Shown here piece after piece: positions 6,073 through 34,100 of a DNA stretch of 39,296 bases. The position numbers and the translations under genes are program-made. This DNA is from a virus. Taxonomy: Duplodnaviria; Heunggongvirae; Uroviricota; Caudoviricetes. The stretch lies in the IMG/VR virus record IMGVR_UViG_2541047784_000014; one strand, written 5' to 3'. The notes under the pieces were generated by a model. It searched no databases. It was not told the origin of the DNA and saw only the letters and a program-made list of their open reading frames with translations. The first letter of the stretch is position 1. Each line of letters starts with the position of its first letter.

Positions 6073-6175
6073 GTTAAATCTCCAGATAGTCGCAGCACCC
6101 GTTGCGCCGCATATCTGGTTATTCTATTACCTGAAAAACCACATATGGATAGATAATCCATAAATACGAAAAGAT

Positions 6176-6192
6176 ATTACCTTTCAGGTAAT
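6176..6192. promoter_or_regulatory. Dyad operator-like site ATTACCTTTCAGGTAAT
   Basis: Perfect 6-bp inverted arms around a 5-bp spacer; member of a motif family found at about twelve intergenic sites; sits between the tailspike start and the LexA-box promoter. Confidence 0.5.
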
Positions 6193-6230
6193 TTGCAAAA
6201 CGTGCTGGATAGCAAACAAATTATTTGCTA

Positions 6231-6246
6231 CTGTATAAATATACAG
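6231..6246. promoter_or_regulatory. LexA (SOS) box CTGTATAAATATACAG
   Basis: CTGT-N8-ACAG with an AT-rich centre, near-identical to the E. coli consensus TACTGTATATATATACAGTA; 22 nt upstream of the ATG at 6268; an internal TATAAAT could be the -10 element. Confidence 0.7.
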
Positions 6247-6267
6247 TTATTGCATGGAGAAGATAAG

Positions 6268-6525
6268 ATGCAGCAGTATCACTATCCACTGGAAGACGGA
6301 TTTACCGAAAGGATTCACACGCCGGGAGGCGTCAGGTCACTGGTGGAGGGATCGCACTTGATGAAATTACTCCGGGATCTCGATAAGGATGGATTTAATG
6401 TCGATGGCCCACTTGCCGAACTGACTGCACTGATTAACTACGTCACCAGCTCACAGATGTCTATGCAGGATCTGCAAACACATCTCGACTATTGTGCCGA
6501 ACAATTACGAAAGCAAACCAGATAA
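6268..6525 (+). CDS. Small antirepressor-like protein, paralog of the C-terminal domain of the adjacent Bro-N antirepressor
   Basis: ATG with GGAG 10 nt upstream; residues TPGGVRSLVEGSHLMKLLRDL...DLQTHLDYCAEQ parallel SPSGVLGLTENSLLMNLLNQL...DIQTHAEYINDK at the end of the 6839-7531 product; directly downstream of the LexA box. Confidence 0.6.
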   Translation: MQQYHYPLEDGFTERIHTPGGVRSLVEGSHLMKLLRDLDKDGFNVDGPLAELTALINYVTSSQMSMQDLQTHLDYCAEQLRKQTR

Positions 6526-6555
6526 GGTTTGCAATTACCAAGTGGAGTGCTTATA

Positions 6556-6572
6556 TTTACCTTTGCGGTAAA
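6556..6572. promoter_or_regulatory. Dyad operator-like site TTTACCTTTGCGGTAAA
   Basis: Same motif family; nested in a longer inverted repeat GGAGTGC...GCACTCC (6544-6587). Confidence 0.45.
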
Positions 6573-6664
6573 TTTACATCGCACTCCTCTTGTGCCATAG
6601 TAATCGGGCACTGGCAAAATCCAGTGCCGGGATTGGTCTCCCGGATTACTACAGAGGCACATAT

Positions 6665-6684
6665 GCCGCATAAGCGGTTTTTTT
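6665..6684 (+). terminator. Putative Rho-independent terminator
   Basis: Short hairpin CCGC-ataa-GCGG followed by seven T; preceded by a stable hairpin GGCACTGG-caaaat-CCAGTGCC (6607-6628). Confidence 0.45.
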
Positions 6685-6838
6685 ATGTGTAAAGCGCACC
6701 TATTCTATGGTGGGCTGTGTGGGGGCACCGAAAGGTGCGCCGGGTTCCTTTGTAGCCGGTAAGACCAACTCTGCACAGTTCACCACCATCTGATTGGTCT
6801 CAGCGGTGGTGATTAACCTAACTACAAAGGTGATCGCC

Positions 6839-7531
6839 ATGAATACCAAACCTTCCATCTTTTCCTTTGAGTCATCCTGCCAGATCCGTATGTTCATGAT
6901 TGACGGAGAACCTTGGTTTGTCACCAAAGATGTGTGCAATGCTTTGAATATTGATGTTACACAAGCGAGAAAACTTGATAAAAAAGGCTGGAACAAAAAG
7001 GGGCTGTATTCAATACAGACCCCTGGTGGAATACAAGAACTATCCATCGTTTCAGAATCAGGTCTCTACATCCTTATTCTGCGTTGCAAAGAGGCTATGA
7101 CAGAGGGAACGAGAGCATTCAGATTTCTTGAATGGGTTACAGGTGAGGTTCTTCCTCAGATCCGCCGCACCGGAAGTTACATTAAAAACTCGCTCCCGCA
7201 GGAAGAACGCATAAAGATGGTTGCCGACCAGGTAGCCAACGCCACGGCGTCAGCAGTAATGCAGGCGATGAAGATAGAGAACAAAACCTACAGTGCCCCG
7301 CTGAAGCCCGGCTACCGCAGCCTGATTCACTCGCCGTCTGGTGTTCTCGGCCTGACGGAGAACTCACTGCTGATGAATCTGCTGAACCAGTTACAGGAAG
7401 ACGGGCACGACGTATCGGGCGCGGCGGCGGAGCTGACCACCATGTTCTGCTACATCGTCGGTGTGAGTAAATGCCTGCGTGATATCCAGACGCACGCGGA
7501 GTACATCAACGACAAGGCTGGGTTCTTCTGA
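6839..7531 (+). CDS. Antirepressor with Bro-N domain
   Basis: Start set at the ATG (MNTKPSIFSF...) with AAGGTG 8 nt upstream; N-terminus has the Bro-N pattern (F.F......R....DGEPWF.A.DV...L); C-terminal domain is paralogous to the 6268-6525 product. Confidence 0.8.
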   Translation: MNTKPSIFSFESSCQIRMFMIDGEPWFVTKDVCNALNIDVTQARKLDKKGWNKKGLYSIQTPGGIQELSIVSESGLYILILRCKEAMTEGTRAFRFLEWVTGEVLPQIRRTGSYIKNSLPQEERIKMVADQVANATASAVMQAMKIENKTYSAPLKPGYRSLIHSPSGVLGLTENSLLMNLLNQLQEDGHDVSGAAAELTTMFCYIVGVSKCLRDIQTHAEYINDKAGFF

Positions 7532-7596
7532 CGGGCGGCGGCACATGGATGTGCCTTTAAAATAATCATTGGCGATGTGATGTAGATTCGCGTAAT

Positions 7597-7613
7597 ATTA
7601 CCTTAAAGGTAAA
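7597..7613. promoter_or_regulatory. Dyad operator-like site ATTACCTTAAAGGTAAA
   Basis: Same motif family; 26 nt upstream of the ATG at 7639, close to its strong ribosome-binding site. Confidence 0.45.
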
Positions 7614-7638
7614 CCATGTGTTTACATGAGGAGGAGAT

Positions 7639-7848
7639 ATGGGATTTTGGTTCGCTCGTACAAAAACGAGGGATAATGCACCCAGCCCTCAGGCAAAAAA
7701 TGCAGAAGTTCCGGCGTCAGCGCAGGTTAACAAGCGTGGTGGAGTATATATCTCATCACAGCAAATTTCTGAGCTTCCTGAGGTTAAGGAGATGCGTCGT
7801 CTCGCTGCTGCAATTGTTAAACAGGATCTTGCCACTGTAAGGAAGTAG
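7639..7848 (+). CDS. Hypothetical small protein (69 aa), first gene of an accessory two-gene operon
   Basis: ATG preceded by GAGGAGGAG; stop TAG overlaps the GTG of the next gene (TAGTG). Confidence 0.6.
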   Translation: MGFWFARTKTRDNAPSPQAKNAEVPASAQVNKRGGVYISSQQISELPEVKEMRRLAAAIVKQDLATVRK

Positions 7849-8714
7849 TGTTGCTAGCTCTTCTAATTATCCCAATCCTGGTTAGCGGTTATATTATGAT
7901 AACCGCTAACCAGTATCATTATTTCCGTTTATACCGACACGAAGGCCAGCTTCTTTATATGAAAGTAGCGGCACTAGGTACATATTGCCTTGTTGCATCA
8001 GTAATAATTGCAGCCGCTATAAAATATAAATGGCCTGATTTTCACCTAGTTCACGATATGGTGGAAACTTTTAATGTAACATCAAAACCAGAAACAGATA
8101 GAATTTACATGTGGCTGCTTCTTCTCTCAGCCACATCCATTTGCTTCTCTTTGTGTTATGTGTCTGTTGTGTGGGTGAAAGATTTTCTTCTTGGTTGTTT
8201 TTATAAACGTGATATTTACGAGCAAAAAACAGAGGCAATGAAGGCCAGAGTACTGCGAAAAACTTACTCGCAAGGTTCTTTAGACTTACTATTGCTTGAT
8301 GCTATTGAATCGGATCCTAAACGACCAATGCTGATTACTTTATCATCAAACAAAGTGTATGTTGGAATAATAAATGGTTCTGGTGAACCAACGGAAAATC
8401 AGGGTCCGCATCAGCACATATCTTTTGTTCCTTTAATGTCAGGATACAGGAACAAAGAAAACTTATCTGTCACATTCACTAATGCTTATCCAGGAGAAAT
8501 ACAGGTCAAGCGGACTGCAGCAATAAGAGGAATTAGCAGAAAGAAAGTGCCAGGACTTGAGATCATGGTGTCTATTGACGAAATAAGTTATATATCATGG
8601 TTTGATTTTGAAGTATATAAAGCAACAAATAACAAAGTAGAATCCAGGGGGCACGTTATTCGTGTTACCAAAAATGGAAGAAATATATATCAAAGAAATA
8701 GCAAAAAAGAATAG
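7848..8714 (+). CDS. Hypothetical inner-membrane protein (about 3 N-terminal TM segments plus a roughly 170-aa soluble domain); candidate superinfection-exclusion or abortive-infection factor
   Basis: Long AT-rich ORF with hydrophobic N-terminus, translationally coupled to the 69-aa gene and followed by a strong terminator. Start uncertain (GTG 7848, TTG 7851 or ATG 7896). Function is inference only. Confidence 0.65.
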   Translation: MLLALLIIPILVSGYIMITANQYHYFRLYRHEGQLLYMKVAALGTYCLVASVIIAAAIKYKWPDFHLVHDMVETFNVTSKPETDRIYMWLLLLSATSICFSLCYVSVVWVKDFLLGCFYKRDIYEQKTEAMKARVLRKTYSQGSLDLLLLDAIESDPKRPMLITLSSNKVYVGIINGSGEPTENQGPHQHISFVPLMSGYRNKENLSVTFTNAYPGEIQVKRTAAIRGISRKKVPGLEIMVSIDEISYISWFDFEVYKATNNKVESRGHVIRVTKNGRNIYQRNSKKE

Positions 8715-8735
8715 CCCGCGCTGCGGGCTTTTTTG
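8713..8735 (+). terminator. Rho-independent terminator
   Basis: Hairpin AGCCCGC-gct-GCGGGCT followed by a T-run, immediately after the stop at 8712-8714. Confidence 0.8.
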
Positions 8736-8772
8736 TGTCTGCGGATTCCCGCCCGGGCGGCGGTGGCATTCG

Positions 8773-8798
8773 TTAAAAACAAGGCCGCGAAAGCGGCC
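8773..8798 (-). terminator. Rho-independent terminator for the minus-strand gene 8813-9262
   Basis: Hairpin GGCCGC-gaaa-GCGGCC (8783-8798) followed on the minus strand by UUGUUUUU. Confidence 0.7.
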
Positions 8799-8799
8799 T

Positions 8800-8811
8800 G
8801 TGACATGTCAC
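8800..8811. repeat. 12-bp perfect palindrome GTGACATGTCAC (copy 1 of 3)
   Basis: Identical 12-mer also at 25802-25813 and 28066-28077, each next to a terminator-type hairpin; here it lies between the stop codon (8813-8815) and the terminator hairpin. Confidence 0.6.
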
Positions 8812-8812
8812 G

Positions 8813-9262
8813 CTACTTGCGAAATCTTTCTTTACCCTTCCAGCCAGTAGATGTTAGTTCAGGATGAATGGTTCCCAATATAAAGCCAACCATAGCGGAG
8901 CGAGGATCTTCTATTTTATCCGTTAATTCTTCGGCATAACTCACAGGCAACCAAGCAACAAGATCACCAATCCTCAGCTTTGGTCCTTTGCTGTAAGATG
9001 AATCGGCAATAACAAAAAATCCACCATCAGCTGAGCACACCTTCAGCATTGCCCTTTGTCTTCCAGAATCTAGCAAAACTGGCTGTTCCCCACTTGGACC
9101 AGGTATGATGATGGCTGGCATTGGTTTATTGGCTGAAAGGCTTGTGTCAAGATACTTACACGCATACTCAAAAGCTGAAAAGTTATCCTTAAAGATAAGA
9201 GGTTGAATTTTATTGCTAACCTCCTTACCACCGATTAATCTGTTGATCATCTTCTTGAACAT
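8813..9262 (-). CDS. Hypothetical protein (about 149 aa)
   Basis: ORF with in-frame ATG codons at 9262 and 9250 (the track start is a GTG at 9271); moderately AT-rich; followed by palindrome and terminator. Confidence 0.55.
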   Translation of the reverse strand: MFKKMINRLIGGKEVSNKIQPLIFKDNFSAFEYACKYLDTSLSANKPMPAIIIPGPSGEQPVLLDSGRQRAMLKVCSADGGFFVIADSSYSKGPKLRIGDLVAWLPVSYAEELTDKIEDPRSAMVGFILGTIHPELTSTGWKGKERFRK

Positions 9263-9274
9263 AAAGGTCACCTA

Positions 9275-9715
9275 ATGATTAAGCCGATGCACGCTATTAC
9301 AGCTACCGTTTTGTTTATCCTACCAATTTTTTCGTTTGCAAACGACATATGTTTTAAGAATTTAATAAATGAGGATATGTGTGCACATGCAAACAAAATT
9401 GCATCAGAAGCAGGAAAGTCACTTCCCATAAAATTGAATGATAATATGTCTATTGTTTCAATAAATGCAATACTAAACAAACTTTTAGTTGTAGCGCATC
9501 TTAATTACAACAACAGCTATTTATCAAAAGTTTATAACGGTGATGTAACCTTAGAAAATAAATTAAAGAGTGTAATGCGAAATTATTCAAAATCGAGCAT
9601 TTGCTCCAACAGGCAAATGAAAGCATTTATTCACCTTGGCGGAGAGATTGAATATAGGTATGTATTTAGTGATGGCAATATATTTGATACATACGCCATC
9701 ACTAATTGTGAATAG
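9275..9715 (+). CDS. Secreted (signal-peptide) Cys-containing protein, AT-rich accessory gene
   Basis: Predicted signal peptide (probable cleavage after FSFA); 4 Cys in the mature part; very AT-rich; on the strand opposite to the flanking late genes, its stop codon abutting the convergent stop of the 1129-aa gene (TAG/CTA at 9713-9718). Confidence 0.6.
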   Translation: MIKPMHAITATVLFILPIFSFANDICFKNLINEDMCAHANKIASEAGKSLPIKLNDNMSIVSINAILNKLLVVAHLNYNNSYLSKVYNGDVTLENKLKSVMRNYSKSSICSNRQMKAFIHLGGEIEYRYVFSDGNIFDTYAITNCE

Positions 9716-13105: not shown

Positions 13106-15852
13106 TATTTGCCCCCTGCGTATATATTGCTCGGAAGGTAATTGGCTGAACCATAACCGAATGGTTTGGTCAGATCTGGAGGAGTATATCCATCTTTATT
13201 GCTGAACTGCGGCAGCGGATTGCCTTCTCTCCGCACTCTAGCCTCATCAACACGTTGTTGCTGGAACTGAATGGTTTGCCTGTACATTGGAGATGTCAGC
13301 TGATCCGGCTTGAAACGAACAGGGAGACCATTTTCTCCAATATAATTTCTCGGTTCTATCGCTCCGTTTGCGTCAGGCTGTAAAACCATAACAGCATAAC
13401 TCCTATCCCTTGCCGTAAGGCCATCAGAAACAAGTATTAAGTCCGTATCACTGCGAGGACCGCCAAAGGATTTTGATTTAAGCTCGCGTTTTTCCTGCTC
13501 CCACTGCCCCTGTATCCAGTTACCAGCACCATTATTTACTCCGTACAATGCCTCAGGTGCATACTTCATAACCTCTGCTTTGCCATTAACCGTAGAAACT
13601 CCCCAGGTGGTTCTGATCATGGCATTGGTCATTTTCTCAGCCTGTTCTGCATCGCCACCTGTCTGTACAAAGTTAGCATCGTAAATTGTCTGGTAATCTC
13701 GCTGATAGGCCGCATTTGATTTTCCTGGATCGGTAATATCCGGAGACCACGAACCAAAGGAAGTCAGACTGCTGGCGTTATTTTGTGCAGCAGTTGCCCT
13801 CGCCGCGACATATTTTTTGTCTCGCATGGCAGTGGAAAGCATCTGTTTCATTCGGTCATCCTGTTGGAACACCTGGCTGTAAGCCATATCAACAGCCTTA
13901 TCCTCCGGCACGCCAGCGCGGGAATAATCGTAAACCTTGCCGTAAAATGCCATCGTACTTTTATCAAGTGTTGCCGCTGCCGCCGGATTATTATCGAATA
14001 ACTGACCGTAGAATTTTGCCATCGGGACAACCAGCGCAGGATCTCTTGATGTTGCTCCACTGTTAAGCATTGTTTTAACCTGAGTTGGTATCATGCCGCT
14101 TTTAGTTGTGACGGTGACCAGTGTATTGATGCTCTGCGGATCAGATATGGAAAACGAAGGCGCGATATCCTGCGCGAAATAACGGTCTACCGCTGCCTGA
14201 TTGTTTTTGTCGTTCGGGTCCAGCGGGAAGTTATTTTGCATTGAAGACACGAACCTGTTTCTTCCCTGCTGAATCTCCCACTCCCTATCCATCTCTTTAA
14301 ATTTGGCCTGCATTTTCTCCCAGCGTTGCTGGTTAGCTGCAAATCCAGGAGCGTTTGGATCCTGTGGACGTAAACGTTCAAGAATGTCTTGTCGTCCTTC
14401 TGGAGTGAGGTCTTTAGCGGCACCAATGACACCTCCATATTGTATCTGCGCCTGCATATCCTTCCACTTCATAGCGCCAATGCGCGGACCATTGGCCCGG
14501 ATAAAATCGTCCTCAGAAGGTAACTTCTCAGGTTTCAATCCTTCATCAAGGGCTGAATATGCATCTTTAACTACGGTGCTAAGCTGGTCCGCATACTGCT
14601 GGCGGTACTGATTTCTCAGCTCATTAGCCTGCCTCAATGCCTGTATTTGCATTTGAGGGCTCATAGCATCAAATGCCGCATTGCCCGTATAACGCTTAGG
14701 TGAATCAAGGTTAGTTAGACCAAGGGCTGCCGAGATACCAGTTTCAAGCTGTTCGGTGCTATAAGGCATACTGCCATTTTCGTGTTTAATAATCCCAGCA
14801 CATAAAGCAGCTAGTGTCTTTGGGTTAGAGATATCAAGCTGATCATTCTCCCCAACACCAAGCTCACCACACAATGCCCTAATATAAGCATCAGTATTAT
14901 TACCATCACTAGCCGGAGCATAGCGATTAACAATCTCGCTAACGGTGTCATAGCCTTGACGCTGGTAAGACAACATATTTTTACCCAACGCGCGGATTCC
15001 ATGCTCAGGGGTAGCAAACGTTGCAAAACGTCCATCGCTACCGATCTGACCTTCCCACGGGTTAGATTTGCTCGCTTCAATATTACCAGGGTTATTATTA
15101 CGTAAACCACGAGCATCCAATGAATTACCATGTGATATTGCACGACTCACACCATCAAGATCCCCTGGCTCTCCATTAACCTGAAGAAACTCGTTGTATT
15201 TTTGAGCGATATTTCCTATCCATGCTTGCTGCCCCATTTGTTCCTTGAGCTGAGTTTTCTGCTGAACACGCCACTCATCAGGAAGCCCATGCGCATCAGC
15301 GTATTGATCAATAGATTCAAATCGCTGCTTGGCTAAATCGACAAATGCTTGGTTATCGCTATATAGCCCCGCAGACTGAGTGACAGCCAATGCATTTCCT
15401 GACAAATACGTTTGATCTTGGAATTGCTGAAACTGCCCAACTTCATATCGACGTGCCTGATTGTAATAAGACTGCATAGACTGCTGGAGTTGAAAGGATA
15501 ATTTATTCCTTTCCTCACTTTCAGGAATTGAGCCTAATAATGCCTGAGCCCTTTCCTGCATATTTTTCATAACAGCGTCACTCTGACCAAGAGCGTTTTT
15601 ACCCTGTTTAGAAATCAGCCCACTTTCAGGGTTGTTAATCTGGTCATCTGCAAATTGGTTAAATTGCAGTAACGCCTCCTGGGCCATAGCAACATTCGCT
15701 TTCTGCCTGGCTTCACCATATGCCACCGCATACTGATCTGCGACATTCGCCAGCACCTGACCTGCTTGAGGAACATCGAAGATCTGAAAACCACCGGTTT
15801 GCACACCACGACTTTGCACCTGGCGTCCGGATGTAGTAGGAACAACAGGCAT
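13105..15852 (-). CDS. Internal virion protein with putative peptidoglycan-hydrolase motif (T7 gp15/gp16-like)
   Basis: 915 aa; central motif GLRNNNPGNIEASKSNPWEGQIG...YAPASDGNN resembles virion-associated cell-wall hydrolase domains; start overlaps the upstream stop. Confidence 0.75.
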   Translation of the reverse strand: MPVVPTTSGRQVQSRGVQTGGFQIFDVPQAGQVLANVADQYAVAYGEARQKANVAMAQEALLQFNQFADDQINNPESGLISKQGKNALGQSDAVMKNMQERAQALLGSIPESEERNKLSFQLQQSMQSYYNQARRYEVGQFQQFQDQTYLSGNALAVTQSAGLYSDNQAFVDLAKQRFESIDQYADAHGLPDEWRVQQKTQLKEQMGQQAWIGNIAQKYNEFLQVNGEPGDLDGVSRAISHGNSLDARGLRNNNPGNIEASKSNPWEGQIGSDGRFATFATPEHGIRALGKNMLSYQRQGYDTVSEIVNRYAPASDGNNTDAYIRALCGELGVGENDQLDISNPKTLAALCAGIIKHENGSMPYSTEQLETGISAALGLTNLDSPKRYTGNAAFDAMSPQMQIQALRQANELRNQYRQQYADQLSTVVKDAYSALDEGLKPEKLPSEDDFIRANGPRIGAMKWKDMQAQIQYGGVIGAAKDLTPEGRQDILERLRPQDPNAPGFAANQQRWEKMQAKFKEMDREWEIQQGRNRFVSSMQNNFPLDPNDKNNQAAVDRYFAQDIAPSFSISDPQSINTLVTVTTKSGMIPTQVKTMLNSGATSRDPALVVPMAKFYGQLFDNNPAAAATLDKSTMAFYGKVYDYSRAGVPEDKAVDMAYSQVFQQDDRMKQMLSTAMRDKKYVAARATAAQNNASSLTSFGSWSPDITDPGKSNAAYQRDYQTIYDANFVQTGGDAEQAEKMTNAMIRTTWGVSTVNGKAEVMKYAPEALYGVNNGAGNWIQGQWEQEKRELKSKSFGGPRSDTDLILVSDGLTARDRSYAVMVLQPDANGAIEPRNYIGENGLPVRFKPDQLTSPMYRQTIQFQQQRVDEARVRREGNPLPQFSNKDGYTPPDLTKPFGYGSANYLPSNIYAGGK

Positions 15853-19362: not shown

Positions 19363-19967
19363 CAGGACAACCTCGCAATGGTAAACTCGTCAACCGGTGG
19401 CTGTGGTTCCTGTGATTCATTCTGGCTATGCGAACCAGCACTAAGAATCACGCGATTGTACATATTGAGGGAAAACGTACCGAGGTCTGCATTCCCAGTC
19501 AGCGCCATGTTAATAGCTGCCGCAAGACGCCAGGCCAGCGCCTCCATAAAAATGGCATCAAACATGTTCACATCTGTAACACGAGAGACATACTTGAGCC
19601 ATGCCTGCGGCTGGTCTGTGTAGATCAACTTTCCTGTTCCGTTGGCGTCTGCACCAACTTCGTACTGAACACGCATTGCTGCTGTTGGATTGCGTACACC
19701 AGGAAGCATAATTTCAGTAATGCGCAGACAATCGGACGGGTACTGGTATGCGTATTCCCAGTCTGGCGGCGGATTGTTCGTATCTGCAAGCGCCACGCGT
19801 TTGGTAGCAAAGTTCCAGTCAAAATCAGAAAGCACAGCATCACGGCAGGCCTCAAAGTGCAGCGAACATTCCCCCGCTTCCTTACTGGCTTCCGTCAGGC
19901 TGTTAATGCTGCGGCTGTTGCCAATATTGGACAGCGCACGATTACAGATCTCTACTACAGAGGCCAT
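19362..19967 (-). CDS. Tail tubular protein A-like (T7 gp11-like)
   Basis: 201 aa (T7 gp11 is about 196 aa); N-terminal ALSNIGNSRSINSL resembles the gp11 N-terminus. Confidence 0.7.
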   Translation of the reverse strand: MASVVEICNRALSNIGNSRSINSLTEASKEAGECSLHFEACRDAVLSDFDWNFATKRVALADTNNPPPDWEYAYQYPSDCLRITEIMLPGVRNPTAAMRVQYEVGADANGTGKLIYTDQPQAWLKYVSRVTDVNMFDAIFMEALAWRLAAAINMALTGNADLGTFSLNMYNRVILSAGSHSQNESQEPQPPVDEFTIARLS

Positions 19968-24861: not shown

Positions 24862-25068
24862 TTACTGACCAAGTAGCGTTTTACCGCTGGTATTAGCGGT
24901 TGATGTGTCGCCCTGAGAACCGGTAAGCAGCGTAGAACTACGACCAGCAGCAGCGCGACGGCGACGAGTTTCTTCGTCGCGGGCATCAACAACGGCGGCA
25001 TCCTGCTCCTGTGGTGCTGCCTGAACTTCTGGTGTTGCAGGCACTGATGGTGAGCTACCCATGCACAT
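24862..25068 (-). CDS. Hypothetical small protein (68 aa) upstream of portal
   Basis: ATG preceded by GGAGTCATTGAT, nearly identical to the portal initiation region; an overlapping alternative frame (24849-25088) is less likely. Confidence 0.4.
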   Translation of the reverse strand: MCMGSSPSVPATPEVQAAPQEQDAAVVDARDEETRRRRAAAGRSSTLLTGSQGDTSTANTSGKTLLGQ

Positions 25069-25157
25069 ATCAATGACTCCGTACGCAATTAAATTATTAC
25101 CAATTTAACCACATATGATTTATTTATCGTAGGTAGTTGACATTTAACGCACAAATT

Positions 25158-25174
25158 ATTACCTTTCAGGTAAC
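25158..25174. promoter_or_regulatory. Dyad operator-like site ATTACCTTTCAGGTAAC
   Basis: Near-identical to the 6176-6192 site; preceded by a TTGACA hexamer (25137-25142) and a shared AACCACATA element (25107-25115). Confidence 0.45.
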
Positions 25175-25494: not shown

Positions 25495-25571
25495 GTGGCA
25501 TTAGCTCAGTTGGACAGAGCAACCGCCTTCTAAGCGGTTGGTCGCAGGTTCGAATCCTGCATGCCACGCCA
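25495..25571 (+). tRNA. tRNA-Arg, anticodon UCU
   Basis: Full cloverleaf: acceptor GTGGCAT/ATGCCAC, D-arm GCTC-AGTTGGACA-GAGC, anticodon stem ACCGC/GCGGT with loop CTTCTAA, T-arm GCAGG-TTCGAAT-CCTGC, discriminator G and encoded CCA; close to E. coli argU. Confidence 0.9.
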
Positions 25572-25813: not shown

Positions 25814-25817
25814 AAAC

Positions 25818-25844: not shown

Positions 25845-25887
25845 ATCCTCATCAGAGGATATCAACGATATTATCCCCTCAAGCGGA

Positions 25888-27363: not shown

Positions 27364-27956
27364 TGATTACCATCCTGACGTTCTTTGAGTCGCTTCCTGG
27401 CTGCCGCTATGCGATCAGCAATTGTCACATTCACATTAACATCCAGGCGTTCTTTGAACGCGTTGACGTCGACGTGCTTACCAATCAGTTCGAGGTTCTT
27501 CACCTTGTCAGGCCATTTAATTTTTTTGAGGATTGTCTCTATCGAATCCTCGTTCATGTTCATGATGGTCGATGACAGATCAAAGCCACTAAGCGTAGTG
27601 CGCCAGATTTTCGGCCACTCGCGGATTGGCTTAAGGCTCCCATCGTCGTTGAGGATGTCGATCACGTCCATCTGGTCGATCTCCACTAGGCGCATGAGAA
27701 CGTAATCAGCACTGACGCGCATTCGTTTGTTGCGCTCCTCCATCAACTCGGCAATCCGTTTTTGAATGCGTTCATCGCGCATCATGACACTGGCTTTAAC
27801 TGCCGCTGTATTTGGGGAGAATCCTGCGTTAATCGCTGCCTGAGTCTGGTTTTCAGGCGTTTTGATGTATGACTGGCAATAAGCCTCCTGCATTGCTGTT
27901 AGTGGCTTAAATTGCGTTGATTTGCGTTTATAGGTTTTAGGTTCAGCAGGCATCAT
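27360..27956 (-). CDS. Terminase small subunit
   Basis: Start set at the ATG pair (MMPAEPK...); helix-turn-helix-like N-terminus; the longer track ORF (to 28052) would run through a terminator hairpin and operator motifs and is rejected. Confidence 0.75.
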   Translation of the reverse strand: MMPAEPKTYKRKSTQFKPLTAMQEAYCQSYIKTPENQTQAAINAGFSPNTAAVKASVMMRDERIQKRIAELMEERNKRMRVSADYVLMRLVEIDQMDVIDILNDDGSLKPIREWPKIWRTTLSGFDLSSTIMNMNEDSIETILKKIKWPDKVKNLELIGKHVDVNAFKERLDVNVNVTIADRIAAARKRLKERQDGNQ

Positions 27957-27972
27957 AACCACCGTGGTAATA

Positions 27973-27989
27973 GTTACCGTTGTGGTAAT
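27973..27989. promoter_or_regulatory. Dyad operator-like site GTTACCGTTGTGGTAAT upstream of the terminase genes
   Basis: Same TTACC-N5-GGTAA family; 17 bp upstream of the terminase small-subunit start; flanked by GGTAATAGTTACC-type repeats (27966-27995). Confidence 0.45.
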
Positions 27990-27997
27990 AGTACCAT

Positions 27998-28025
27998 GCA
28001 AAATAAAGCCGCCATAGTTGGCGGC
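27998..28025 (-). terminator. Rho-independent terminator between the early (Nin-like) genes and the terminase genes
   Basis: Hairpin GCCGCCA-tagt-TGGCGGC (28008-28025) followed on the minus strand by UUUAUUUUG. Confidence 0.65.
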
Positions 28026-28065
28026 AGTATTCAAAACCATCAAATTCATCATGCATAATCTACTC

Positions 28066-28415: not shown

Positions 28416-28686
28416 TATTTACCTTTATCGCGAACACCTTTACCGGTTTATCACCGAAGTGGGGATGTGTGATTGTCTTGATTTCATATCCGTCATACTG
28501 GACGTTAATTCTGCGGCTGGAGTCGTCGCGCTTCGGATATCCCTTTGTGATAATCAGGCGGTCATACTCCCGGAACATAATTCGCTTATTCCAGTAGTCA
28601 TTACACAGGCGATACTCTTCCGTTTTCTCTCCGCGAATCATGGCATCGAAGTATTCACCTTTAACGGCAAGTTGCAGGTTAGCCAC
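28405..28686 (-). CDS. Hypothetical protein, possibly ASCH/PUA-like
   Basis: Start set at the GTG preceded by AAGGAG just after the upstream stop; motif GEKTEEYR resembles the ASCH-domain G.KT.E.R pattern (weak). Confidence 0.5.
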   Translation of the reverse strand: MANLQLAVKGEYFDAMIRGEKTEEYRLCNDYWNKRIMFREYDRLIITKGYPKRDDSSRRINVQYDGYEIKTITHPHFGDKPVKVFAIKVNIDG

Positions 28687-29038
28687 GGTTAACTCCTTGC
28701 TGTGTGGCGTCGAGTAATAAATCCCACAACCGCTGAGAGCAATTTCCGCATGTACAGCGTTGACCCACAACGTTTATCGCGTTGCTGATTTCCGGCGTTA
28801 CCTGTTTAGGAACCATAACCCAACCATCCGGAGTTACCGGAGAGTTGCCATCCAGCGCGTTCAACTTGTAAGCCTGGCTTACAGGTTCTGCACTATCAGC
28901 TTCGCGCCGCTTCTGTAGCTCTGCTGCCATCGCTCTCACGACTTCAACTGGTGCCCTTGCAGCAAACTCTATGTTGGTGATCAGCTCATTAAGATATTGC
29001 TCGCTGGGATACTGTTTCTTATTGGTAATAGTGGTCAT
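28679..29038 (-). CDS. Hypothetical early protein
   Basis: 119-aa ORF in an operon-like array with tight junctions; no family recognised. Confidence 0.55.
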   Translation of the reverse strand: MTTITNKKQYPSEQYLNELITNIEFAARAPVEVVRAMAAELQKRREADSAEPVSQAYKLNALDGNSPVTPDGWVMVPKQVTPEISNAINVVGQRCTCGNCSQRLWDLLLDATQQGVNRG

Positions 29039-29041
29039 GTG

Positions 29042-29329
29042 TTAGTCCTCATCCACTTCAACGCCATCTTTCAGCGTGATGCCGTGCCAATCATCAGCCC
29101 AACTGGTTAGCCCTGGCGCATCAATGCTAGGCATATAGACGCTTGCAGTGTGGTAGCCCTTATCGTTATCAATGCTGGCAACGTGCTCGCCGTTGTATGC
29201 GCTCAGCGTGTCCAGGACGCTATAAAACTTTCCTCCGGCTGCCCTGAAATCCTTTACAGCCTTCACAAGGCGATTCCACGCTTTTTCCTGTTCTGGCGTC
29301 AGGTCGATTAATTCCTGCAAAGTTGCCAT
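29042..29329 (-). CDS. Hypothetical early protein
   Basis: Start set at the ATG (MATLQELIDL...) with AGGAGAG upstream, immediately after the upstream stop; the longer track ORF overlaps the upstream gene. Confidence 0.5.
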   Translation of the reverse strand: MATLQELIDLTPEQEKAWNRLVKAVKDFRAAGGKFYSVLDTLSAYNGEHVASIDNDKGYHTASVYMPSIDAPGLTSWADDWHGITLKDGVEVDED

Positions 29330-29330
29330 A

Positions 29331-29954
29331 TCACTCTCCTTTGATGCGAATGCCAGCGGCGCGCTCGGATTCACTTTGTTCCCAAAACCACTTGTGAAGC
29401 TCCATAAGCTTTTCGTCAATCGGTGCATATTTGCGATTAAAGTAGGCCTGAGCATCTTTCTCAGATTCGTCCGGCAATTCGCCAGGGCCAAACAGTGTGT
29501 TATAAATCCATGCCAGTCCGCTCTTAGCGTCGCCAGTTGCCTGCCATTCGATAATCGCAGCCTGCATGACCAGAATGTTTTTCCCGATTAACAGGTCCAG
29601 TTCTTTGAACCGGTTGCGGATGTATGCATTCTCGCTTTGTAATTCAGCGTTGCGCTTCTCTGCGGCTTCCAGCTCAACTCGCAGCTTCCCAACCGTAAGC
29701 GCAATATCCTCGTTCTCCTGGTCACGGCGTTTTATGTATTGCTGGTTTCTTTCCCGTTCATCCAGCAGTGCCAGCACCGTTTCCGGGCCGGTCAGCAGTT
29801 TGAAGTTGTTAATCGCATCAATATCAACATCGCTATCTTTAAGCTCCTTTTCGCTTAACAAGTCATCATCGGCTGGCAACGTTAACAGGCGTTCCATTGC
29901 CGGAATTGCGCGTTCTGCCGCTTCACGCAGTGCCTGATAGTCAATCTTGCTCAC
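29331..29954 (-). CDS. Hypothetical coiled-coil early protein
   Basis: 207 aa with a central coiled-coil segment; start overlaps the upstream stop. Confidence 0.6.
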   Translation of the reverse strand: MSKIDYQALREAAERAIPAMERLLTLPADDDLLSEKELKDSDVDIDAINNFKLLTGPETVLALLDERERNQQYIKRRDQENEDIALTVGKLRVELEAAEKRNAELQSENAYIRNRFKELDLLIGKNILVMQAAIIEWQATGDAKSGLAWIYNTLFGPGELPDESEKDAQAYFNRKYAPIDEKLMELHKWFWEQSESERAAGIRIKGE

Positions 29955-30484
29955 TGGTTGCCTCCTTTGCGAAGCTTCGCCGCAAAATCAGCCGCAACCT
30001 CTTTGACCATATTGGATAGCGGAGTGCCACCTCCGAATTTTTCTGAGAACATCTCTACCCCCTGCGCCCGTACTTCAGCCAGGAAAGCATCGGTGGCTGG
30101 GGTTTCGATATCGTTAATTTCAGGAAGAATCTCTTCCCATGTAGCGATATCGCCATTCAAATGCCATCCGGCAATTCCACTGGAGTTATCCGCAACACTC
30201 CGAACGGCTTCAATAGCTTCATGCATTGCCGCATTCTCCGCCGCCAGCGCCGAAAACTTCTCGTGTGCCAACTTAACAGCCGAATCAGCCTGCTTAATTG
30301 ACTCAATCGCTTTCTGCTGGTCTTCGGCCATCGCATTAGCACGCACCAGTTGCACTTCCAGTTGCGTTGCCAAATCGCTGATCAGCTTTGCCACACTGCG
30401 CATATCAACGGCACCACATTCTGCTTTCAGTTCCGAAGCCATCTCATGCCCGGCGGCAACTAACCCTTTGATATTACTTTCCAT
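29951..30484 (-). CDS. Hypothetical helical early protein
   Basis: 177-aa Ala/Glu-rich ORF. Confidence 0.6.
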   Translation of the reverse strand: MESNIKGLVAAGHEMASELKAECGAVDMRSVAKLISDLATQLEVQLVRANAMAEDQQKAIESIKQADSAVKLAHEKFSALAAENAAMHEAIEAVRSVADNSSGIAGWHLNGDIATWEEILPEINDIETPATDAFLAEVRAQGVEMFSEKFGGGTPLSNMVKEVAADFAAKLRKGGNQ

Positions 30485-30545
30485 CTTTACCCTCGCTTAT
30501 CCACATAACTTATTGATTACATTGATAACTAAAAAGATCGTCGAT

Positions 30546-30890
30546 TCAGAACTCTTCGATGTTCCAGCCACCACCTGCTTTCTTTGGTTTAACCGTTACC
30601 CCGATGATTCGGAACGGATACTGATCTGCGGCGACTTTGGTTTTCACCCTGGCGTCGTCGGTCCAGAAACCTTTCACTTCGTGCAGTTCCATCTCGCCGG
30701 TGGCGAGCATCACAGCAAAATCTGGCGTATAGAACGTGTTGTCAGCTAACCGCAGCTTGATACCCTCAAATCGATACCAGACGATTTCTCCTGCACGTTT
30801 ACGCAACTCAAGGTGCTGGCAATACGCAGATTCTGTTTTGTTCATCTGGCCTGTTTTGAGTCGACCAAGAGCCTGTATCTGTTTTCTCAT
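30546..30890 (-). CDS. DUF1064-like phage protein (putative nuclease/resolvase fold)
   Basis: 114 aa; family assignment from remembered sequence pattern; the start codon abuts an operator-like site (30893-30909). Confidence 0.6.
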   Translation of the reverse strand: MRKQIQALGRLKTGQMNKTESAYCQHLELRKRAGEIVWYRFEGIKLRLADNTFYTPDFAVMLATGEMELHEVKGFWTDDARVKTKVAADQYPFRIIGVTVKPKKAGGGWNIEEF

Positions 30891-30892
30891 AA

Positions 30893-30909
30893 TTTACCCC
30901 TGAGGTAAT
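30893..30909. promoter_or_regulatory. Dyad operator-like site TTTACCCCTGAGGTAAT
   Basis: Same motif family; immediately upstream of the DUF1064 start codon; followed by AACCACATA (30914-30922). Confidence 0.45.
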
Positions 30910-30954
30910 TAAAAACCACATAAGACACGAAATCAATAGAGTTTAGAATACTTT

Positions 30955-30971
30955 GTTACCCAGAAGGTAAC
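30955..30971. promoter_or_regulatory. Dyad operator-like site GTTACCCAGAAGGTAAC
   Basis: Perfect 6-bp arms; second site of the module between the P-like gene and the DUF1064 gene. Confidence 0.45.
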
Positions 30972-31007
30972 TATCAAGGCGTAAAAAAATGCGCTATCGC
31001 GCTGGTA

Positions 31008-31808
31008 TTACTTGATAAATCCTGCCGCCTTTCCCCGCCTGTATTCCTCCATCAGCCACTGTGCCGGTGTTATTCCCCCCAATGTGGCGGCGTTAGGCAT
31101 ACACCCGAAACTTCGCCCTGGTGGATGGTAAACGTCTCTCCCTGTGTCCGGAGGCGTACTCATGGGTTCTGGCTTTGCCTGTATGCTGATCACCGGATCG
31201 GGTATCTGCTGTCCGGAAGCTACCTTTTTCGCCCAATCATCGAGCAGCCTGCGCGCGTGTTTCTCAACCTCAATCTCGCTAAGCTGGCGCTGATACATTG
31301 CACGGCGGGTATCACATACGACCCAGTACATAACCGGATGTCGCCACGGGAATCTTTCGGGACCACCAGGATATAAACTTTTTTCCTTGCTGTACCGGTG
31401 AAACTCCGCCATCACATCGTCAATGGTGACGCCAAGAACCATCTTGCTGTCTTTACACCACTTGATGAATTGCCCTGGCGACGGCCAGAACGGAGATTCA
31501 CTGGCGCGGGCGTGGCGCATACCAGCAGAAACCTGTTCACGGGTTCGGATCCCCCCTTCGGCAAACGCAGCAATCCACTGCTGTTTTGCAGCAACTTCCT
31601 GCTCTGGAGTCTTCAGGTTGGTTACTACTGCCGCCGGAAACAGTTGTTTCAGCTGTTTGAAAAGGGCATCAACAAGCCTCTCTGCTGACATGTTCACCAC
31701 ATTGTCATTGTTGACGTACTGATGCTCATAACCTGACATGCGAGAAAGGGCTTCTCCGTCACGGTTTTGTATCGCGGTAAAAACGTTGTTCACAAGAAAT
31801 CCTCCCAC
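31008..31808 (-). CDS. Replication protein P-like (helicase loader)
   Basis: Central segment GMRHARASESPFWPSPGQFIKWCK parallels lambda P (GMRVARRQNRPFLPSPGQFVAWCR); directly downstream of the O-like gene. Confidence 0.8.
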   Translation of the reverse strand: MGGFLVNNVFTAIQNRDGEALSRMSGYEHQYVNNDNVVNMSAERLVDALFKQLKQLFPAAVVTNLKTPEQEVAAKQQWIAAFAEGGIRTREQVSAGMRHARASESPFWPSPGQFIKWCKDSKMVLGVTIDDVMAEFHRYSKEKSLYPGGPERFPWRHPVMYWVVCDTRRAMYQRQLSEIEVEKHARRLLDDWAKKVASGQQIPDPVISIQAKPEPMSTPPDTGRDVYHPPGRSFGCMPNAATLGGITPAQWLMEEYRRGKAAGFIK

Positions 31809-32629
31809 GCTTCAGGGCTGTTCCAGTGCGGAACGTTGTTATCAGGTAATGTTGATTGCTTCTGTCTGCTAATCTGCAGCCGCCTTGCCAGCTTCTGCTC
31901 CCACTGTGCCTGATGGTATGCCTTACCCTCAGCCATCCAGTAAATTCTGAACTCTGCAAGCTCCTGTGCCGTTGGCAGACTGTCCAGGTAGATCCCCTGC
32001 AATGAGCTTTTCCGAAGAAAGTCATCTGATGGCTGCCATTGTTCATGCATGACAAATTTGCCTAATTGCCCTGGCCCACCAGGAGGAACAAAGTTATTCA
32101 TCACGGCGTTGTTTGCGCCGGGGTCATGAGGCACAGAATCCCCGCTTTTTGTCCTGCTCTCCCTCTCTTGGTTAAATGACTGGTTATATGACTGGTTCTG
32201 GATCCCGTTTTTGGGATCATTCAACATCCCGTTTTTGGGATCATTCAACATCCCGTTTTTGGGATCATTCAACATCCCGTTTTTGGGTATATTCCCGTTT
32301 TCGGTAACATTACCGTTTTCGGGTTCATTACCCCCTTCCCGGTTGCCTTTAATGTTCCCGTTTTTGGTTATATTAAGAGAGAAAACCCGCACTCTTTTCG
32401 TCGCACCCTTTCTCTCTCCGGTATCTGAAATAAGCCCCATTTTCATGAGCGATATAAGCCCGGCCTGCACGGTTTTTTTATTCAGGCAAGTGTCTTTAAC
32501 GAGGCGTTCTATGCTGGGGTAGCAGAGGTTATATTCATCGGCTCTGTCAGCCATCGAGAGCAGTATGAGCTTTAATGACGAGCTACCTGGATCTGTCTCC
32601 CAGGCCCAATCTGTTGCATGTCTGCTCAT
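31790..32629 (-). CDS. Replication initiator O-like protein with embedded origin iterons
   Basis: N-terminal DNA-binding-like domain; central PKNGMLND x3 repeats encoded by three perfect 24-bp tandem iterons; gene order O-P as in lambdoid phages. Confidence 0.75.
   Translation of the reverse strand: MSRHATDWAWETDPGSSSLKLILLSMADRADEYNLCYPSIERLVKDTCLNKKTVQAGLISLMKMGLISDTGERKGATKRVRVFSLNITKNGNIKGNREGGNEPENGNVTENGNIPKNGMLNDPKNGMLNDPKNGMLNDPKNGIQNQSYNQSFNQERESRTKSGDSVPHDPGANNAVMNNFVPPGGPGQLGKFVMHEQWQPSDDFLRKSSLQGIYLDSLPTAQELAEFRIYWMAEGKAYHQAQWEQKLARRLQISRQKQSTLPDNNVPHWNSPEAWEDFL
32202..32273. repeat. Origin-like iterons: three perfect 24-bp tandem repeats ATCCCGTTTTTGGGATCATTCAAC
   Basis: Each unit contains the dyad ATCCC-N6-GGGAT; degenerate copies of CCCGTTTT(T)GG continue to about 32370; located inside the O-like gene as in lambda ori. 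Confidence 0.75.
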
Positions 32630-32644
32630 GATTAATCTCCGCTA

Positions 32645-32845
32645 TCAGCTTGAATGTTGTGGGGAGGAATTAATCATGATCTGCTTAATCTCTGCCCTGA
32701 TGCGACGGTTTGATTCCATAGTGCACTCAACACAGTGTCCGTTGTAAACCCAGCGTTCACTGTCATGTCCGTGCTTACATGGTTTTCCGGTGTAGTAGCG
32801 TTTAAGTCCGCGCTTTGCGGCATCAATACGTGTAATAATTTCCAT
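32645..32845 (-). CDS. Hypothetical small Cys/His-containing protein (cII position)
   Basis: Start set at the internal ATG (MEIITRIDAAKRG...); contains C.H.H...C..C; between the Cro-like gene and the O-like gene. Confidence 0.45.
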   Translation of the reverse strand: MEIITRIDAAKRGLKRYYTGKPCKHGHDSERWVYNGHCVECTMESNRRIRAEIKQIMINSSPQHSS

Positions 32846-32924
32846 GGTAAGCCCTGTTATTAGTATTGGGATTACGGTCATTTTGTGCTGACACAAAAAA
32901 AAGATCAACCAGATTTGGTTTTTT

Positions 32925-32941
32925 ATTACCTTTGAGGTACG
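32925..32941. promoter_or_regulatory. Dyad operator-like site ATTACCTTTGAGGTACG (imperfect right arm)
   Basis: Same motif family; just downstream of the tR1-like terminator. Confidence 0.4.
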
Positions 32942-32944
32942 AAT

Positions 32945-32974
32945 AGATATGAAAAGACCGCCGGATGGCGGTCT
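32945..32974 (-). terminator. Putative terminator downstream of the Cro-like gene (tR1-like position)
   Basis: Hairpin AGACCGCC-ggat-GGCGGTCT followed on the minus strand by UUUCAUAUC. Confidence 0.5.
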
Positions 32975-32995
32975 ACAGAGGGTTGTGGATGGATA

Positions 32996-33226
32996 TCATG
33001 AGTAGAAGAAGTATGCCAGTTCTGCTTTTGAGCGCAGCCATTGTCTTGTTTTACAGGCTTTAAAAAGCCCATTCATCAATACCTTACCTGGCATTTTGCG
33101 CTTACCTGTTAAGTGAGTCTGGATATAGTGACTCGTCGTTCCGGCTTCCTGTGCGAAGGCTTCACGCTCATCCGGAGTAAGTGCAAGCCAGTGCTTTTTG
33201 AAATCGAAATGTCCGTTATCGCTCAT
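32996..33226 (-). CDS. Cro-like HTH regulator
   Basis: 76-aa helix-turn-helix protein transcribed divergently from the repressor-like gene toward the replication genes. Confidence 0.65.
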   Translation of the reverse strand: MSDNGHFDFKKHWLALTPDEREAFAQEAGTTSHYIQTHLTGKRKMPGKVLMNGLFKACKTRQWLRSKAELAYFFYS

Positions 33227-33292
33227 AGCTATTGCCTGATATTTATTTCAGATAATAAATATTCACCCATAAGGTAACAAAAATCAAGGATA

Positions 33293-33309
33293 GTTACCTA
33301 TGAGGTGCA
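33293..33309. promoter_or_regulatory. Dyad operator-like site GTTACCTATGAGGTGCA (imperfect)
   Basis: In the divergent Cro/repressor intergenic region, directly abutting the next site; a GGTAAC half-site lies at 33273-33278. Confidence 0.4.
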
Positions 33310-33326
33310 TTTACCTGTTGGGTAAT
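33310..33326. promoter_or_regulatory. Dyad operator-like site TTTACCTGTTGGGTAAT
   Basis: Near-perfect dyad in the divergent Cro/repressor intergenic region. Confidence 0.5.
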
Positions 33327-33380
33327 ATTGCTTTAAATTGAATCATCTACTGATTCATATATGAGGCGATTTTCCAGAAA

Positions 33381-33965
33381 ATGAAAAGTATCCAGGACGT
33401 CCGCAGGCAAAATCTCAACGACTTGATCGACCGTGAATTCAATGGTGTTCAGACGCGGATGGCAGAAAAACTTGGAACTCAGGCAAATCTGGTAAACCGC
33501 TGGGCTCTTGGCAAGAAGGTTATCGGCGACCAGGTTGCGCGAAAAATTGAAGCTGCCGCCAATAAACCCCGTAACTGGCTTGATATCGATCGCTCGCTTT
33601 CTCAGGAAGGTTTTCAGCCTGTCGGCCCAAGCGACATTGGTCAGCTGGCGGCTCACAACCTGGAACGCTGGATGAGCGAAAGCCGCGACCTTTCAACGCA
33701 GGGAAAACTTCACCGCGCATCCGGCGTCGCCCAGGTGACAATCAGTCGCCTGTTAAACAATGAGGTCAGCGTTTCCATTTCCACCCTGGAGAATGTTGCA
33801 TCCGCATTCGGGCGTCACGGATATGAACTACTGATTCACCCGCACGACCCTGCGACTATCAACTATGACCGCTCGCGCTACGCATTGTTACCCGAAACCG
33901 AGAAAGCAAAGATCGAAAGTTACATTGAATTTGTCATCAACCAGAACGAAAAAAGCAAACAATAA
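33381..33965 (+). CDS. Repressor-like protein with two predicted HTH regions and no recognisable S24 peptidase domain
   Basis: HTH-like segments near residues 25-45 and 115-135; no Ala-Gly/Ser-Lys autocleavage signature seen by eye; cI-like position; followed by a strong terminator. Confidence 0.7.
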   Translation: MKSIQDVRRQNLNDLIDREFNGVQTRMAEKLGTQANLVNRWALGKKVIGDQVARKIEAAANKPRNWLDIDRSLSQEGFQPVGPSDIGQLAAHNLERWMSESRDLSTQGKLHRASGVAQVTISRLLNNEVSVSISTLENVASAFGRHGYELLIHPHDPATINYDRSRYALLPETEKAKIESYIEFVINQNEKSKQ

Positions 33966-33986
33966 AACTATATTTTTCAGTAAGTA

Positions 33987-34009
33987 AGCCGCCTCATGGC
34001 GGCTTTTTT
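33987..34009 (+). terminator. Rho-independent terminator after the repressor-like gene
   Basis: Hairpin AGCCGCC-tcat-GGCGGCT followed by TTTTT. Confidence 0.8.
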
Positions 34010-34021
34010 ATTGCCAGATAG

Positions 34022-34038
34022 ATTACCTTACGGGTAAT
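34022..34038. promoter_or_regulatory. Dyad operator-like site ATTACCTTACGGGTAAT
   Basis: Perfect arms; upstream of a TTGACA hexamer (34057-34062) at the head of the + strand early operon (pL-like position). Confidence 0.5.
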
Positions 34039-34083
34039 TTTTTTAACTCATATCTATTGACACCAAACCAAATAAGCATAATT

Positions 34084-34100
34084 ATTACCTCAACGGTAAC
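34084..34100. promoter_or_regulatory. Dyad operator-like site ATTACCTCAACGGTAAC
   Basis: Second site of the pL-like region, about 20 bp downstream of TTGACA. Confidence 0.45.

Follow-up and report, generated by a model that had tools for sequence, protein, structure and literature searches.

Background

Prophages of the ε15 type carry a lysogeny repressor, Rep, known from the Salmonella phages ε15 and SPC32H. We analyzed a 39,296-nucleotide stretch of viral DNA (IMG/VR record IMGVR_UViG_2541047784_000014; hereafter the window) that encodes a Rep homologue at 33381-33965 and contains many copies of a 17-bp dyad, ATTACC-N5-GGTAAT. Based on sequence comparison, we conclude with a probability of about 0.85 that these dyads are the operators of Rep.

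Published work divides Rep into an N-terminal DNA-binding domain, a middle dimerization domain and a C-terminal domain responsible for tetramerization and antirepressor binding (PMC9986798). On palindromic DNA, Rep is a tetramer, built as a dimer of dimers in which the DNA-binding pairs are drawn from different dimers, and the tetrameric antirepressor Ant strips it from the DNA by disassembling it (PMC9638917). The ends of the tetramer core are ~100 Å apart (PMC9986798). In the sister phage ZX5, overexpression of the repressor abolished free phage and lowered holin and endolysin mRNA by more than 99.9%; operators were not mapped in that study (PMC9782041). As of 2023, the mechanism of Rep-type repression was described as not extensively characterized (PMC9986798).

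The ε15 record (AY150271.2) contains seven features labeled 'protein_bind / repressor / lysogeny', which are exactly its seven perfect matches to the dyad. They lie upstream of terS, gp3/portal, the tailspike gene, the leftward promoter PL (three sites), and the nin-like operon. That one repressor acts at many dispersed promoters is thus already a public notion for this phage family. The original ε15 paper reportedly gives the consensus as ATTACCWDWWNGGTAAT, a string for which a search returned no match. The assignment of the dyads to Rep is therefore sound and essentially known, as it repeats the ε15 annotation. What may be new is the quantized spacing of the dyads with 62-bp bracketing of promoters, the overlap of operator and ribosome-binding site, and the unchanging specificity across the family.

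Enrichment and sequence profile of the dyad

A sequence-only reading of the window had proposed that the dyad recurs at about twelve intergenic sites. The recurrence is real: ATTACC-N5-GGTAAT is present in 2 exact copies and in 13 copies at ≤2 mismatches, whereas dinucleotide shuffles predict 0.97±0.97 and reached 13 in 0 of 100 cases. The scan against a shuffled background that had been suggested as a check thus gave a frequency well above random expectation. When all dyads of the form 5-mer-N(1-11)-reverse complement were counted without bias, TTACC-N5-GGTAA ranked first with 10 exact copies; the top count for any dyad in 100 Markov-2 simulations had a maximum of 4 and a mean of 2.4. Using a gene model built by homology to φV10 and ε15 to split coding from non-coding DNA, we found 12 of the 13 matches within the 7% non-coding fraction of the window (binomial P=1.8e-13), in line with the original description of the sites as almost all intergenic, and a null restricted to non-coding DNA predicts 0.19 matches. 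The remaining match, at 13126-13142 (2 mismatches), lies inside a coding sequence and was rejected as an operator; it is the one match that chance would give.

Eleven of the twelve coordinates first listed are good sites: those at 6176 and 34022 are perfect, those at 7597, 25158, 27973, 30893, 33310 and 34084 have one mismatch, and those at 6556, 30955 and 32925 have two. The site at 33293-33309, which had been called near-perfect, has four mismatches, with a right half reading GGTGCA. Two dyads had been overlooked, namely 27955-27971 (1 mismatch), the partner of 27973, and 33262-33278 (3 mismatches). The resulting set of probable operators comprises 14 dyads across 10 regulatory regions.

A symmetrized profile of 63 sites from five divergent genomes carries 1.6-1.9 bits at each of T2, T3, A4, C5 and C6, ~0.5 bit at position 1 and ~0.2 bit at positions 7-8, with W at the center, and this one information profile accommodates all 63 sites. 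Since every dyad could fold into a hairpin of 5-7 bp, and since some overlap ribosome-binding sites and others directly follow terminators, the repeats could in principle work as RNA or DNA hairpins, such as RNase III sites, translational attenuators or parts of terminators. The predicted stability of these hairpins is only −1 to −5 kcal/mol, however, and where one arm deviates from the consensus the other arm compensates in 0 of 21 inner pairs, with 4 of 41 outer pairs still Watson-Crick; moreover, the distal sites lie upstream of their promoters. The uncompensated deviations and weak hairpins indicate a protein site whose halves are read independently, and we regard a hairpin function as extremely improbable.

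Conservation of the dyad together with Rep

The window holds an integrated prophage, a temperate podovirus of the ε15/φV10 type (genus Uetakevirus), with an immunity region 97% identical to that of φV10. The attachment (att) core ATTGAGTGGGAATGATT at 1162-1178 equals the core published for ZX5 (PMC9782041), which identifies the window as an integrated prophage with positions 1-1161 as host flank. This flank encodes a glycine-zipper/TraT-like lipoprotein (1-516) and a DUF5384 protein (532-1071). The operator that relatives carry upstream of int would fall just past the end of the window. Of 5,426 complete E. coli genomes, 539 contain a region comprising rep, the lambda-type right operator (OR) and PL.

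The probable reader of the dyads, Rep, is a 194-amino-acid protein encoded on the plus strand (33381-33965). It is a full-length homologue of SPC32H Rep (PDB 5D50; E=3.5e-42, residues 1-190 aligned), with 99.5% identity to the φV10 and ZX5 repressors and 43% to ε15/SPC32H Rep. Pfam places an HTH_3 domain at residues 106-147 and a weak N-terminal helix-turn-helix (HTH) at 21-61; it detected HTH families only, and no self-cleavage domain (Peptidase_S24). Among Reps that are 42-80% identical, N36, R40 and W41 of the N-terminal HTH are invariant and residues 37-39 vary only conservatively (L/V, V/I, N/S), so that near-unchanging recognition residues match an unchanged half-site. F184 of the window Rep is an invariant phenylalanine aligned with the SPC32H tetramer-interface residue F190 (PMC9986798); the position aligned with SPC32H F187 is a tyrosine in the window Rep and non-aromatic in some homologues. 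The regulator had been taken for a dimer; its homologue is a tetramer, a dimer of dimers, rather than a simple dimer, and two DNA-binding domains probably read each dyad.

The dyad is similarly enriched in all Rep-encoding relatives examined. At ≤2 mismatches, with about 1 or fewer expected in each genome, we counted 15 matches in φV10, 18 each in ε15 and SPC32H, 16 in Enterobacter phage Tyrion, 14 in Klebsiella phage BUCT711, 9 in a 20-kb stretch of a Serratia prophage, 10 in a 20-kb stretch of an E. coli prophage and 12 in a 16-kb stretch of a metagenomic prophage. Five Ant-encoding prophages (Citrobacter, Erwinia, Pseudocitrobacter, Scandinavium) have the exact core ~97 bp upstream of ant, as does the 6176 site of the window. 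Alignments of six phages whose Reps are 43-100% identical show orthologous site positions, with invariant TTACC/GGTAA halves and five drifting spacer bases; the shared positions are the OR triple, the PL pair, the nin-like pair, the terS pair, gp3/portal and the ant-tailspike interval. In all, the conserved site positions, invariant half-sites and drifting spacers span phages of at least seven enterobacterial genera. The dyad is kept by Rep homologues down to 52% identity, including N39S variants and the Serratia prophage, and the ε15 and Klebsiella Reps, which align with those homologues at 42-44% identity, use the same dyad. Portal-related phages at ≥60% identity all carry Rep. As a negative control, Sodalis phage phiSG1, which has a related portal and no Rep, gave 2 matches against 1.4 expected, i.e., no enrichment. 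The proposal that a single phage-encoded regulator, the 33381-33965 protein, serves many promoters is thus supported by the dyad annotated in ε15, the homology of Rep, the placement of sites at OR and PL, their conservation with Rep and the lack of enrichment where Rep is missing.

Probable operators of the immunity region and early operons

Three dyads (33262-33278, 33293-33309 and 33310-33326) lie between rep and a divergent cro-like gene, with center-to-center spacings of 31 and 17 bp and with positions conserved in six phages. The degenerate 33293 site occupies the conserved middle position, and 33262 is the third site of the OR. The likeness of this region to a Cro/repressor region with adjacent sites such as OR1-3 is therefore borne out. 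On the minus strand, a PR-like promoter (−35 33280-33275, −10 33257-33252) flanks and overlaps the 33262 site. The cro-like gene (32996-33226, minus strand) has a 76-amino-acid product that belongs to phrog_35 'transcriptional repressor' (E=5.6e-13) and is homologous to φV10 p41 and ε15 gp39. In lambdoid phages it is the rule that CI and Cro share operators. By this precedent, the cro-like protein, a small repressor-family protein encoded divergently from rep across three adjacent dyads, could be the main or an additional reader of the dyads, especially at OR and the lytic-operon sites. Such a role would be compatible with Rep binding, as an addition rather than an alternative; we found no link between the cro-like protein and sites outside OR, and the ε15 annotators gave the sites to the repressor. 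We therefore see a cro-like reader as possible, if on balance unlikely, and continue to treat Rep as the probable reader.

Downstream of rep, the dyads at 34022-34038 and 34084-34100, 62 bp apart center to center, bracket a PL-like promoter on the plus strand (−35 TTGACA from 34057, −10 AATTAT to 34085). A minus-strand promoter of the nin-like operon (Pnin) is enclosed in the same way by a distal dyad at 30955-30971 and a proximal dyad at 30893-30909, again 62 bp apart. The layout of PL and Pnin is invariant in six phages: distal dyad, ~18 nt, −35 (TATTGAC/T), 17 nt, and a −10 overlapping the first bases of the proximal dyad. The start codon at Pnin, an ATG, lies 2-4 nt beyond the proximal dyad, so that the spacer and right half (GAGGTAA) double as Shine-Dalgarno sequence; in the window, the Shine-Dalgarno formed in this way is that of the DUF1064 gene (ATG at 30890), and the dyad overlaps the −10 as well.

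The replication operon (p42-like, dnaT-like and P-like genes; minus strand) is preceded by a single dyad at 32925-32941, just past the cro terminator (32955-32974) and ~16 nt upstream of a candidate −35 TTGATC. Orthologues of this site occur in φV10 (33111), Tyrion (35364) and BUCT711 (6031). A second, O-proximal dyad 62 bp from 32925 was looked for in the window and none was found. The dnaT-like gene itself contains three adjoining tandem arrays at 32169-32332 (12 bp ×2.4; a perfect 24 bp ×3.6, ATCCCGTTTTTGGGATCATTCAAC, 32202-32287; and 18 bp ×3.1), which look like origin iterons.

Probable operators of the late and accessory operons

Two adjoining dyads, 27973-27989 and 27955-27971 (18 bp center to center), occupy the minus-strand interval between a terminator (28008-28025) and the probable start of terS. 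The pair is also found in φV10, ε15, Tyrion and two further loci (L012 and L013), and the ε15 copy is annotated as a repressor site. For terS, the probable true start is ATG 27953, which immediately follows the dyads; a longer open reading frame starting at 28052, or the φV10 annotation with its start at 41, would enclose both operators and the terminator in coding sequence (φV10 41-122).

The dyad at 25158-25174 precedes the gp3-portal-capsid late operon by ~90 bp (gp3 homologue at 24862-25068, minus strand). Its position is conserved in six phages, and its ε15 orthologue (2931-2947) is annotated as a repressor site. The gene targets named in the sequence-only reading call for minor adjustment: the terminase pair adjoins the probable terS start at 27953, and the 25158 site, given there to the tRNA unit, is better assigned to the late operon. 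The tRNA-Arg gene (anticodon TCT; 25495-25571, plus strand) lies between terminase and the portal operon, where SPC32H likewise carries a tRNA-Arg.

The tailspike gene (3316-6072, minus strand) and ant diverge from a shared region that contains the perfect dyad at 6176-6192, whose ε15 orthologue (19895-19911) is an annotated repressor site. A further dyad at 7597-7613 precedes a plus-strand accessory operon of two genes (7639-7848 and 7848-8714) assigned to phrog_5739 and phrog_3630, both families of unknown function. Near the start of the second gene is a 36-nt inverted repeat with 15 paired positions (CTGGTTAGCGGTTATATTATGATAACCGCTAACCAG, 7878-7913). Of the holin-operon operator known in relatives, the window retains no more than a half-site (about 3165-3171). 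Between their tailspike and holin genes, φV10 and SPC32H carry an O-antigen acetylase gene, which is absent here (window positions 3096-3315).

Along the minus strand, PR/OR and the cro-like gene come first; a terminator, the 32925 site and the replication genes follow, then a terminator, the Pnin pair and the nin-like genes, next a terminator, the terS pair and terminase, and finally the 25158 site with the portal/capsid operon. Almost every transcription unit thus opens with a terminator and then one or two operators.

The late operons share a second element with one half-site inside. In gene direction it reads CATATGTGGTT-N5-GGTAAT and lies at 25098-25118 (minus strand) before the gp3-portal operon, as a block invariant in six phages. 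Its second copy, ATTACC-N5-AACCACATATG when read on the plus strand, is found upstream of the tailspike gene (6127-6147, minus strand) with invariant columns and an exact AACCACATA at 6137. The element is a candidate late promoter or activator site, at 60 bp (gp3) and 49 bp (tailspike) from the full dyad. As an independent second motif, AACCACATA was not significant at 1 mismatch (14 vs 8.5 expected), and we kept it only within the longer invariant element. A related sequence, ATGTGGTT, is present in the Pnin spacer (30914-30922). A scan for consensus promoters at ant, terS and the late operons gave no more matches than shuffles.

This element bears on the question of whether only the OR and PL dyads are true operators, with the terS, portal, tailspike and accessory copies reflecting chance resemblance to promoters or ribosome-binding sites, or a site for another factor such as a late activator. 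Besides the separate invariant element with its single half-site, the right half GGTAA and spacer purines create a Shine-Dalgarno-like GAGGT near several start codons, and a PerC-like activator is encoded at 36909-37208. The dispersed copies, however, have both half-sites, share the invariant TTACC/GGTAA and free spacer of the OR and PL dyads, and fall under the single profile of the 63 sites. No ribosome-binding site can lie upstream of a −35, where the distal copies stand; the positions hold across genera, and the phage without Rep shows no enrichment. We consider a restriction to OR and PL to be improbable, and Rep operators across all 10 regions remain the better account.

The antirepressor region

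Sites had been predicted upstream of both antirepressor genes, and both predictions hold: the 6176 dyad precedes ant, and the 6556 dyad precedes a second antirepressor module. The small antirepressor gene ant (6268-6525, plus strand) encodes 85 amino acids with 88% identity to SPC32H Ant (SPC32H_020). Directly upstream is a LexA (SOS) box, TACTGTATAAATATACAGTT (6229-6248, plus strand), with two mismatches to the 20-bp consensus, 0 expected, and a CTGT...ACAG that is invariant in six phages. The interacting proteins have diverged unequally from their SPC32H counterparts, Ant being 88% and its binding partner Rep 43% identical.

The second module follows a plus-strand promoter, TTGCAA-17-TATATT (6529-6557), whose −10/+1 region is covered by the dyad at 6556-6572. 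Orthologues of this dyad are found in φV10 (20496), Tyrion (21392) and BUCT711 (17376). The promoter serves an isrK-like small RNA of the Hfq-binding type (6608-6684; Rfam isrK 74.7 bits; terminator 6665-6685), a C4 antisense RNA (6703-6790; Rfam C4 78.6 bits) and a Bro-N antirepressor-like gene (6794-7531; Pfam Bro-N E=2e-13), all on the plus strand. This isrK-C4-Bro-N module (6608-7531) resembles P1 immI and Gifsy-1 and represents a second antirepressor layer.

Spacing of the dyads and proposed mechanism of repression

Across nine genomes, the spacing between neighboring dyads falls into four classes: 17-18 bp (12 cases), 30-31 bp (3), 62-63 bp (15) and 72-76 bp (6). Spacings of 31, 62 and 74 bp correspond to about 3, 6 and 7 helical turns, which would suit a protein whose two DNA-binding modules hold two sites on the same face of the helix, in keeping with the published Rep tetramer.

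In the mechanism we propose, two N-terminal domains would read the two TTACC half-sites of one 17-bp dyad, and a Rep tetramer with two such pairs could hold two dyads at once. At PL or Pnin, one tetramer might then clamp the promoter, with the 62-bp dyad pair (~6 turns) bracketing the −35 and −10. The proximal dyad would cover the −10 and the transcription start and, at Pnin, the ribosome-binding site as well. We rate bridging of the 62-bp pairs by a tetramer at even odds. OR, with its three sites, resembles the switch of lambda, set here between rep and a cro-like gene. Rep would directly silence early, late and accessory units, including terS, portal/capsid, tailspike/ant, isrK-C4-Bro-N and the accessory operon. 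The sequence data establish the dyads, their enrichment, placement and conservation, and their co-occurrence with Rep; we infer Rep binding at each listed site and repression by the late-operon sites. Induction would occur by antirepression: upon DNA damage, LexA would leave the 6229-6248 box, Ant (6268-6525) would be made, and Rep would be removed from all operators at once.

Several observations weigh against this interpretation. The middle OR site is degenerate in the window (4 mismatches). Straight DNA of 62 bp measures ~210 Å compared with ~100 Å between the ends of the tetramer core, so that bridging requires DNA bending. At the late operons, the full dyads lie 49-60 bp upstream of the promoter-like element and not over it, so that repressing them would take DNA looping or a second, weak site. 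Finally, an analysis of covariation between recognition helix and operator gave no contrast, as every Rep homologue found uses one dyad.

This uniformity is itself of interest: TTACC-N5-GGTAA is common to Reps that share only 42-55% identity and come from phages of Escherichia, Salmonella, Enterobacter, Klebsiella and Serratia. Operator specificity may be frozen across the family, likely because ten or more dispersed and geometrically constrained operator regions (62-bp pairs, −10/Shine-Dalgarno overlaps) would have to change together. If so, these phages would be broadly cross-immune via Rep, and the diversification of immunity would have shifted to the layer of Ant, C4 and isrK, as in P1/P7. 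We advance this idea tentatively and doubt it more than we believe it.

The presumed operator set would explain how a very common E. coli prophage stays silent: an antirepressor-sensitive repressor would sit on nearly every transcription unit, and one SOS-controlled Ant could release them all. For annotation, the dyads can be used as promoter/operator landmarks that correct gene starts, e.g., that of terS in φV10-type records. The conserved 62-bp bracketing and the unchanging specificity yield cheap, testable predictions on how the structurally unusual Rep tetramer engages DNA.

Comparison with known systems

As in phage lambda, divergent rep and cro-like genes flank three adjacent dyads, and rep is followed, in its own orientation, by a PL-type promoter with operators. 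Unlike the lambda system, Rep is without an S24 self-cleavage domain and induction would proceed by antirepressor, the window has 10 operator regions rather than two, and its paired PL sites stand 62 bp apart on either side of the promoter rather than in a tandem array.

In the plasmid prophage P1 and its relative P7, the C1 repressor acts at more than 12 dispersed operators that are asymmetric 17-mers, and immI consists of the c4 antisense RNA, icd and ant. The window likewise appears to have one repressor on many scattered operons, a C4-guarded antirepressor module (Rfam C4 match) under a repressor-controlled promoter, and a repressor specificity conserved across relatives. Its sites are symmetric, unlike those of P1, and C1 is unrelated to Rep, whose matches are to HTH_3 and PDB 5D50 only, with no Pfam or PDB link to C1. 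Mycobacteriophage L5 gp71 binds dozens of stoperators, asymmetric 13-mers in one orientation inside transcription units. The spread of repressor sites over the genome, including late regions, for global silencing is common to both systems; unlike the L5 sites, those in the window are symmetric and stand at promoters between terminators and gene starts. With symmetric sites and an unrelated protein, the system would work like P1 C1 or L5 gp71 without being a member of either.

The closest match is to the ε15 sites and the SPC32H Rep/Ant/LexA switch (PDB 5D50, 5D4Z), which share the identical dyad, the genus and the gene order, with orthologous sites at terS, gp3/portal, ant-tailspike, PL, OR and the nin-like operon, a LexA box before ant, and 43% (Rep) and 88% (Ant) identity. 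The window differs from ε15 in belonging to an E. coli φV10-type lineage whose sites are unannotated in public records, and in having 2 perfect copies rather than 7, most of its copies carrying 1-2 mismatches. The holin-operon site and the third PL site of relatives are missing here, whereas the isrK-C4-Bro-N module at 6556 and the accessory operon at 7597, both apparently operator-controlled, are missing from ε15 and SPC32H. In summary, judged from the identity of the dyad, the Rep homologue, the orthologous sites and the LexA-controlled Ant, the operator set of the window belongs to the ε15/SPC32H Rep operator family.

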